A stretch of 64,000 nucleotides of DNA from Escherichia coli (lineage in GTDB: Bacteria; Pseudomonadota; Gammaproteobacteria; Enterobacterales; Enterobacteriaceae): assembly GCF_044324785.1 (NCBI RefSeq), contig NZ_CP172127.1. One strand, given 5' to 3'. Below the pieces are notes generated by a model. That model did no database searches. It was not told where the DNA came from and saw nothing but the letters and a program-made list of their open reading frames with translations. Every line of letters begins with the position of its first letter. The first letter of the stretch is position 1. Positions 18,165 to 18,463 of this stretch are shown in pieces. The position numbers and the translations under genes are program-made.

Positions 18165-18240
18165 TGGAGCGGGAAACGAGACTCGAACTCGCGACCCCGA
18201 CCTTGGCAAGGTCGTGCTCTACCAACTGAGCTATTCCCGC
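18165..18240 (-). tRNA. glyV: tRNA-Gly (GCC), copy 1
   Basis: 76-nt sequence, reverse complement gcgggaatagctcagttggtagagcacgaccttgccaaggtcggggtcgcgagttcgagtctcgtttcccgctcca. Confidence 0.9.
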
Positions 18241-18276
18241 TTGGGTGGTCTGTGCTTTGCAGCACTTTTCAAATTT

Positions 18277-18352
18277 TGGAGCGGGAAACGAGACTCGAAC
18301 TCGCGACCCCGACCTTGGCAAGGTCGTGCTCTACCAACTGAGCTATTCCCGC
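18277..18352 (-). tRNA. glyX: tRNA-Gly (GCC), copy 2
   Basis: Identical 76-nt repeat of copy 1. Confidence 0.9.
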
Positions 18353-18387
18353 TTGGGTGGTCTGTGCTTTTCAGCACTTTCAAATTT

Positions 18388-18463
18388 TGGAGCGGGAAAC
18401 GAGACTCGAACTCGCGACCCCGACCTTGGCAAGGTCGTGCTCTACCAACTGAGCTATTCCCGC
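18388..18463 (-). tRNA. glyY: tRNA-Gly (GCC), copy 3
   Basis: Identical 76-nt repeat of copy 1. Confidence 0.9.

Follow-up and report, generated by a model that had tools for sequence, protein, structure and literature searches.

The stretch of Escherichia coli DNA analysed here, 64,000 nucleotides of contig NZ_CP172127.1 and referred to as the window, contains three tRNA-Gly(GCC) genes arranged in tandem:

18388..18463, minus strand: tRNA-Gly(GCC), first gene (glyV position); ARAGORN; Rfam RF00005, 69.1 bits; identical to K-12 glyV
18277..18352, minus strand: tRNA-Gly(GCC), second gene (glyX position); ARAGORN; Rfam RF00005, 69.1 bits; identical to K-12 glyX
18165..18240, minus strand: tRNA-Gly(GCC), third gene (glyY position); ARAGORN; Rfam RF00005, 69.1 bits; identical to K-12 glyY

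All three copies exceeded the Rfam tRNA threshold (69.1 bits each vs. a gathering score of 29, full model 1-71), and ARAGORN read the anticodon gcc at position 34. The 76-nt copies differed neither among each other nor from K-12 glyV, glyX and glyY, and the CCA end is encoded. Glycine identity depends on the discriminator U73, the pairs G1:C72, C2:G71 and G3:C70, and C35 and C36. The sequence GCGGGAA...UUCCCGC-U-CCA carries G1:C72, C2:G71, G3:C70 and U73, hence the glycine identity set is complete, and tRNA-Gly(GCC) reads the glycine codons GGC and GGU. Tandem Repeats Finder reported the array at 18163-18463 with a period of 112, 2.7 copies, 98% matches and a score of 588; the tandem repetition is far above chance. 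The original prediction, made from the sequence alone, had described three identical 76-nt tRNA-Gly genes here; ARAGORN, Rfam and sequence comparison bear out both count and coordinates, and tRNA detection, which it had named as a check, recovered all three genes. It was silent on the strand, which is the minus strand.

The array is the ordinary and well-known glyV-glyX-glyY operon of E. coli. It lies between orn and queG and is co-directional with orn, both according to the K-12 alignment and in the annotation of K-12 and four other genomes; orn is located upstream of the array on the same strand, and queG, which ends at 17895, downstream and convergent with it. The order orn, promoter, array, terminator, datA, yjeV, queG is that of K-12, and on a larger scale the window is collinear with E. 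coli (rlmB, hfq, mutL, queG, array, orn, frd, groSL, dsbD, pheU, island). K-12 glyVXY (b4163-b4165) shares with the window the tRNA sequences, the neighbours (orn; yjeV and queG) and the downstream datA. When the segment between the stop codons of orn and queG was aligned base by base, two stretches proved identical to K-12, one reaching from the -35 hexamer through the leader and the other from the glyY trailer through the terminator to DnaA box 1, inclusive. Upstream of the -35 element there are four substitutions, in and near the A/T tract; a few others lie farther into datA. The assignment to glyV-glyX-glyY, for which alignment with K-12 had been suggested, was thereby confirmed: the tRNAs are identical, the orn-queG interval is the same, and promoter, leader, terminator and datA are nearly identical. 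The arrangement orn-[tRNA-Gly(GCC)]n-queG was also found in Citrobacter, Enterobacter, Pluralibacter, Mangrovibacter, Pantoea, Erwinia, Tatumella and Morganella; for Proteus and Providencia the sequence compared covered the queG flank alone.

The transcription signals around the array are as follows:

18632..18652, minus strand: orn intrinsic terminator, strong, keeping orn transcription apart from the tRNA promoter (terminator scan: 8-bp stem followed by a T run; fold -20.3 kcal/mol, z -3.2)
18521..18548, minus strand: glyVXY promoter (by eye, script and K-12 alignment)
18464..18513, minus strand: 5' leader of the precursor, about 50 nt, inferred start; predicted small hairpin of -8.4 kcal/mol
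18110..18142, minus strand: operon terminator/attenuator, imperfect hairpin followed by UUUUU; 65-nt trailer fold -14.3 kcal/mol, z -2.7

The promoter consists of a -35 element TTGCAG (18548-18543), a 16-nt spacer and a -10 element TATAAT (18526-18521). An A/T tract lies upstream of these elements, and the GC-rich discriminator GCGCCTCC comes after the -10 element. The consensus promoter scan produced no call at the glyVXY promoter, because the -35 element fits the consensus at only three of six positions; the function of the PglyVXY promoter has been demonstrated (PMC10950094). A perfect -10 element, a GC-rich discriminator and an upstream A/T tract correspond to the usual layout of growth-rate- and stringent-controlled stable-RNA promoters, and a single sigma-70 promoter of this kind, approximately 50 nt upstream of the first gene, would drive all three genes. 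Transcription of orn mostly ends upstream of PglyVXY (PMC10950094). The glyVXY precursor used in vitro by the McDowall laboratory begins at CCGTAACGACG (PMC3985628), which corresponds to about 18513 in the window, reading downward. At the other end the terminator, TglyV-X-Y, is a leaky attenuator (PMC10950094); its sequence in the window is that of K-12, and it overlaps the first DnaA box of the locus downstream. Features of this downstream region are:

17897..18146, unstranded: datA, the DnaA-inactivating locus (DnaA-box scan, K-12 alignment, IHF consensus match)
18146-18138, minus strand: DnaA box 1, ATATCCACA, overlapping the operon terminator
18079-18071, minus strand: perfect DnaA box, TTATCCACA (DnaA-box scan)
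18002-18014, plus strand: IHF consensus site (consensus match)
17917-17909, minus strand: near-consensus DnaA box (DnaA-box scan)
17897-17905, plus strand: near-consensus DnaA box (DnaA-box scan)
17878..17931, minus strand: yjeV, a 17-codon ORF MRFYFYSQAVDESGVTR (translation), overlapping the 3' end of queG

The small ORF yjeV is annotated as b4670 in K-12 and as WP_010723271.1 in RefSeq genomes, at the same relative position. Read-through from PglyVXY has been described to cross the IHF site of datA and to set the timing of IHF binding, hence that of DnaA-ATP hydrolysis (PMC10950094). Transcripts escaping the terminator in the window would likewise enter datA and help to displace IHF, and tRNA transcription would thereby be tied to the control of replication initiation. 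The array is of interest through its direct coupling by read-through to datA, a regulator of replication initiation, a coupling that is already known.

Judged by its identity to K-12, the locus would form a single transcription unit, with one precursor running through all three genes to the leaky terminator formed by a hairpin and a U tract. By direct entry, RNase E cuts the glyVXY precursor in its 5'-triphosphorylated form (PMC3985628). A major site is located 1 nt 3' of glyY and requires the single-stranded glyX-glyY intergenic region (PMC4191395); cleavage 3' of glyY requires in addition the adjacent upstream tRNA (PMC9841416). The in vivo RNase E motif is RN|WUU (PMC5222698), and it fits AA|AUU right after the CCA in the trailer as well as in both spacers, the trailer match being CCA-A|AUUC. 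In the spacers the motif would place the cuts at CCA-AA|AUUUG, 2-3 nt after the CCA in either case. Since the sequences are the same, the processing results obtained with K-12 carry over to the window: RNase E would cut the single-stranded A/U-rich stretch just 3' of each encoded CCA, where AAAUUUGA fits the motif. In E. coli tRNA maturation in general, 5' ends are made by RNase P and 3' ends by exonucleases; RNase P would accordingly generate the 5' ends of the three tRNAs, and exonucleases would trim the 3' ends back to the CCA. The argX-hisR-leuT-proM and metT-leuW-glnUW-metU-glnVX operons follow a shared logic, with single-stranded A/U-rich spacers between folded tRNAs and direct entry of RNase E (PMC9841416, PMC4191395). 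Those operons contain mixed tRNAs and unrelated spacers, whereas glyVXY consists of identical repeat units, and for this reason its spacers evolve in concert and its copy number varies.

Altogether, we are highly confident that the locus as a whole is best explained as the glyVXY operon, transcribed into one precursor that is cut apart, with read-through into datA; no observation spoke against the identification. The K-12 literature establishes which genes these are, how the operon is laid out, that RNase E cleaves the precursor and that read-through reaches datA; glyVXY is a textbook tRNA operon that was already known. As a finding the array is therefore of low significance; the value of the analysis lies in the right label and context.

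The spacers between the genes deserve a closer description, and their sequences in the direction of transcription are:

18353..18387, minus strand: spacer 1, 35 nt; AAAUUUGAAA, hairpin GUGCU-GAAA-AGCAC (18377-18364), AGACCACCCAA
18241..18276, minus strand: spacer 2, 36 nt; AAAUUUGAAAA, hairpin GUGCU-GCAA-AGCAC (18265-18252), AGACCACCCAA

One substitution and one indel separate the two spacers. Consequently, the original prediction that the genes are separated by 36-nt spacers holds for spacer 2 (18241-18276) and fails for spacer 1, which has 35 nt (18353-18387). Likewise, the hairpin motif it gave for each spacer, gtgctttgcagcac, is present at 18252-18265 in the 36-nt spacer only; the 35-nt spacer has gtgcttttcagcac (18364-18377), with a G-to-T change in the loop and a following T run that is one T shorter. 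Both hairpins have a 5-bp stem, a GNRA tetraloop and a folding energy of -7.2 kcal/mol. The fold of spacer 1 reached a z-score of -3.5, and z-scores from single-spacer shuffles ranged from -1.1 to -3.5, which is modest. Both hairpins were kept in the MFE and centroid folds of the whole 420-nt precursor, a result used for the persistence of the hairpins alone, as the whole-precursor MFE mispairs the identical tRNA copies and is uninformative on the cloverleaf. The terminator scan called no intrinsic terminator in the spacers, where the hairpin is followed by AGACCACCCAA in the tRNA sense.

In K-12 the 36-nt spacer comes first and the 35-nt spacer second, whereas this order is reversed in the window. 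Spacer 2 of the window is identical to spacer 1 of K-12; the 35-nt spacer of K-12 has a GUAA loop closed by U.G, that of the window a GAAA loop closed by U-A. The window thus combines three copies, as in K-12, with another spacer order and another loop. Since spacer order varies within E. coli, it is not a criterion for membership in glyVXY. K-12 and most strains have 36 nt (GCAA loop) followed by 35 nt (GUAA loop), strain L725 has 36 nt followed by 36 nt, and strains GF131 and WB61 carry two-gene arrays, a rare form. The combination seen in the window, 35 nt (GAAA) followed by 36 nt (GCAA), was not found among the matches listed for 5,426 complete E. coli genomes, and neither was the exact variant of spacer 1. 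The best three-copy arrays among the matches listed showed 98.9% identity over 347 nt. When a 157-nt probe over both spacers was used, in preference to a short spacer query blurred by multi-piece joins, the best single-piece matches listed reached 98.7% and none 100%. Such reshuffling of spacers would most obviously arise from exchange between the identical 76-bp repeats, by unequal recombination or by gene conversion, and the reversed order is a minor variation.

A larger variation is an imperfect, ERIC-like palindrome of 121 nt, of which about 30% of the complete E. coli genomes (1,606 of 5,426) have a copy with at least 95% identity. This insert folds with -37 kcal/mol and is positioned between the normal hairpin spacer 1 and the 5' end of the second tRNA, giving a spacer of 157 nt. 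Judged by the ERIC consensus and primer sequences, its core resembles the ERIC repeat. Strains A27, 103 and O145:H28 RM12581, which represent the ERIC-bearing form, match the window in their three tRNAs, in the flanks and in the short spacers with hairpins, and carry the 121-nt insert, whereas the window is without it: BLAST of the A27 insert against the window returned no significant match to this ERIC/IRU element. Altogether 1,628 genomes had a split match to the window, consistent with the 1,606 that bear the insert. The split matches, about 30% of genomes, were also considered as two-copy arrays; this was rejected, as the four that were inspected had three tRNAs and the 121-nt insert in spacer 1. 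The insert was found in addition in spacer 2 of Citrobacter youngae and Enterobacter asburiae, at an equivalent junction, and the polymorphism is therefore probably old. From its position the insert would be co-transcribed with the tRNAs. The description of the cluster as conserved accordingly applies to identity and context; the array itself is less uniform, with spacers of 36 and 35 or 36 and 36 nt, the ERIC-like insert in about 30% of genomes and a few two-copy arrays. Within a single species, the two-copy, three-copy and ERIC-bearing forms show how tandem tRNA genes evolve in concert.

Deviating arrangements were seen in records of laboratory strains. In the BL21(DE3) record NZ_CP081489.1 (4492046-4493203), three tRNA-Gly genes with 36-nt spacers are followed by tRNA-Ile and tRNA-Ala, without the terminator and datA, and in the XL1-Blue and TOP10 records tRNA-Gly adjoins tRNA-Lys. 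These arrangements may be assembled tRNA-supplement constructs or assembly artefacts.

The spacer hairpins were compared across genera by a pattern scan with one genome per species, which collected at least 120 loci with tandem tRNA-Gly(GCC), Salmonella and Klebsiella not being among them. In this set, spacers outside the Enterobacteriaceae were unrelated. Those within the family share the flanks AAATTTG... and ...CCCAA, and most of these genera have a hairpin in the same place, with a stem sequence that varies between genera:

GUGCU / AGCAC: Escherichia, Citrobacter
GUAUC / GAUAC: Enterobacter
UGGCU / AGCCA: Cedecea, ‘Enterobacter’ Ag1
GGCC / GGCC: Mangrovibacter
UGCC / GGCA: Siccibacter
AUGCU / AGCAU and GUGCU / AGCAC: Pseudocitrobacter, in two spacers of one genome

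Superficieibacter, Pluralibacter, Kluyvera and Erwinia have the same synteny and flanks with short spacers that lack the hairpin. The loop is not conserved: a GNRA tetraloop was seen in Escherichia (five of five spacers) and, among the four Enterobacter spacers that have the GUAUC stem, in three, but not elsewhere. Covariation was counted in the E. coli register on an unadjusted MAFFT alignment of 21 spacers. Standard pairs occupied 85% of the cells, vs. 16-54% when the 3' partner was slid by 1-3 columns, double-sided changes occurred at all five stem pairs, and the covariation score was 0.488, whereas the slid controls did not exceed 0.187 and the shuffles 0.268. Five alignment rows are one column off register and were scored as broken, which makes the count conservative, and some of the counted G.U pairs are artefacts of those rows. 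Judged by these aligned spacers, the hairpin is maintained by compensatory changes in Escherichia, Citrobacter, Enterobacter, Cedecea, Siccibacter, Mangrovibacter and Pseudocitrobacter. This covariation is a new but modest observation, and it provides a small lead on the processing of tandem identical tRNAs; the spacer hairpin is unmentioned in the glyVXY literature cited here.

The orientation of wobble pairs bears on the question which strand is under selection. U.G pairs on the tRNA-sense strand were seen in three to four spacer variants (K-12 spacer 2, one ERIC-bearing E. coli strain and an Enterobacter MAG), the reverse case in one. This bias points to the precursor RNA, not the antisense strand, as the selected molecule. 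Our tentative proposal, to which we give somewhat less than an even chance, is that the hairpin keeps the middle of the spacer folded. Neither the A/U-rich stretch after the CCA nor the leader of the next tRNA would then become paired, and neighbouring copies would fold independently. The flanking single-stranded segments would in this way be left open to the processing enzymes. The genera without a hairpin, the unconserved loop and the modest z-scores speak against an essential role.

The same hairpins could instead be functionless, that is, short palindromes copied together with the tRNA when the unit was duplicated. Their stem has just 5 bp and is missing from some genera, spacers within one genome are copies whose similarity is not independent, and the single-sequence z-scores are weak for two of the three E. 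coli variants. This explanation is confronted with stems that differ between genera and stay complementary, double-sided changes at five of five pairs and a pairing that collapses on sliding, and we consider it unlikely. Quite unlikely, in our estimation, is a more specific function of the hairpin as an RNA element, be it a structural determinant that RNase E would recognise through its recently described groove for structured elements, setting the order and rate of tRNA-Gly release, or a stabiliser of a trans-acting spacer, comparable to the metZWV spacers and 3'ETS-leuZ.

A related idea is that an excised spacer or the glyY trailer persists as a stable sRNA, for example as an Hfq-bound sponge like 3'ETS-leuZ or the metZWV spacers. 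Fragments of E. coli tRNA spacers act as sRNA sponges according to Lalaouna 2015, as cited in PMC5222698, and a conserved hairpin could stabilise such a fragment. Hfq co-immunoprecipitation enriches the 3' region of glyY, and the read pattern of glyVXY is altered in hqbA mutants (PMC10710024). However, the glyY 3' transcript was undetected by northern blot in the same study (PMC10710024), no partner sRNA is known, and the spacer lacks the 3' U tract usual for Hfq-binding sRNAs, which together leave this a very improbable role.

We see hardly any likelihood that the hairpins act on the opposite strand by terminating antisense transcription from queG/datA into the tRNA genes. The gene queG is indeed transcribed toward the array, and the T-rich TTTTCAAATTTT comes after each hairpin on the plus strand. 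This tract is the complement of the AAAUUUGA motif and is kept in hairpin-less genera too, so it is explained without a role in antisense termination. The consensus terminator scan made no call there, and a sense U.G, as in the three to four variants mentioned, is a C.A mismatch on the antisense strand, with the reverse in one variant only; the wobble bias thus weakly contradicts such a role.

That the array is a CRISPR-like repeat-spacer locus or another non-tRNA tandem repeat can practically be dismissed: it shares with CRISPR arrays only the layout, i.e. the alternation of repeats and spacers of about 35 nt (here 76-nt repeats at a regular 111-112-nt period), whereas its repeats are complete, high-scoring tRNA genes of a stable-RNA operon, its two spacers are near-identical where those of CRISPR arrays are unique, it is flanked by orn and queG and not by the cas genes that usually occur near CRISPR arrays, and the locus is annotated as tRNA-Gly in all E. 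coli genomes inspected. The similarity to a repeat-spacer locus is hence superficial, as had been noted from the sequence, and the glyVXY operon should not be confused with one.

Two further candidates at the array were discarded. A match to YrlA, a Y RNA-like family (RF02553), at 18300-18438 on the minus strand scored 40.3 bits, below the gathering score of 69, and spans two partial tRNAs and a spacer; it is presumably due to the tRNA-like module in the model of that family. Plus-strand ORFs at 18045-18341, 18139-18474 and 18245-18571 are antisense to the tRNA repeats and annotated in none of the genomes inspected.

Outside the array, ARAGORN found one other tRNA in the window, tRNA-Phe at 47328-47403. 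In the region 47328-64000 this tRNA is followed by an ORF of integrase size (47550-48764) and an island. In the matching E. coli strain 23CRST007 the island is annotated with a LacI-type regulator, an alpha-galactosidase, an MFS transporter, a GH32 hydrolase and a carbohydrate porin, and also with IS2, IS1, cytochrome b562, a type I restriction-modification system and an antitoxin. The island is essentially identical to that of 23CRST007 from about 48 kb on (0-1 mismatch per 2 kb), whereas the core genes elsewhere in the window share only 96-99.3% identity with this strain. None of the 5,426 complete E. coli genomes exceeded 98.7% identity over the 20-kb core segment 10000-30000, whereas the island end of the window had matches at 99.8% or more. 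Given this difference between core and island, the source lineage may be sparse in the collection (perhaps Shigella, which was left out of it) or the window may be a recombinant mosaic.

The island also contains two pairs of repeats. An exact direct repeat of 66 nt occurs at 57006-57071 and 59354-59419, with one copy starting at the annotated IS1 match and the other a fragment beside IS2; we take this repeat to be an IS1 end. A repeat of 41 nt with 90% identity (48849-48889 and 58362-58402) resembles the terminal repeat of IS2, one copy lying at the IS2 end; the other stands alone, with the integrase on one side and the sugar-utilisation genes on the other. Finally, a guanidine-II riboswitch (mini-ykkC) was detected at 33411-33457 on the minus strand with 49.3 bits vs. 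a gathering score of 32; in the collinear E. coli reference this match falls into the sugE/gdx region, its expected known location.
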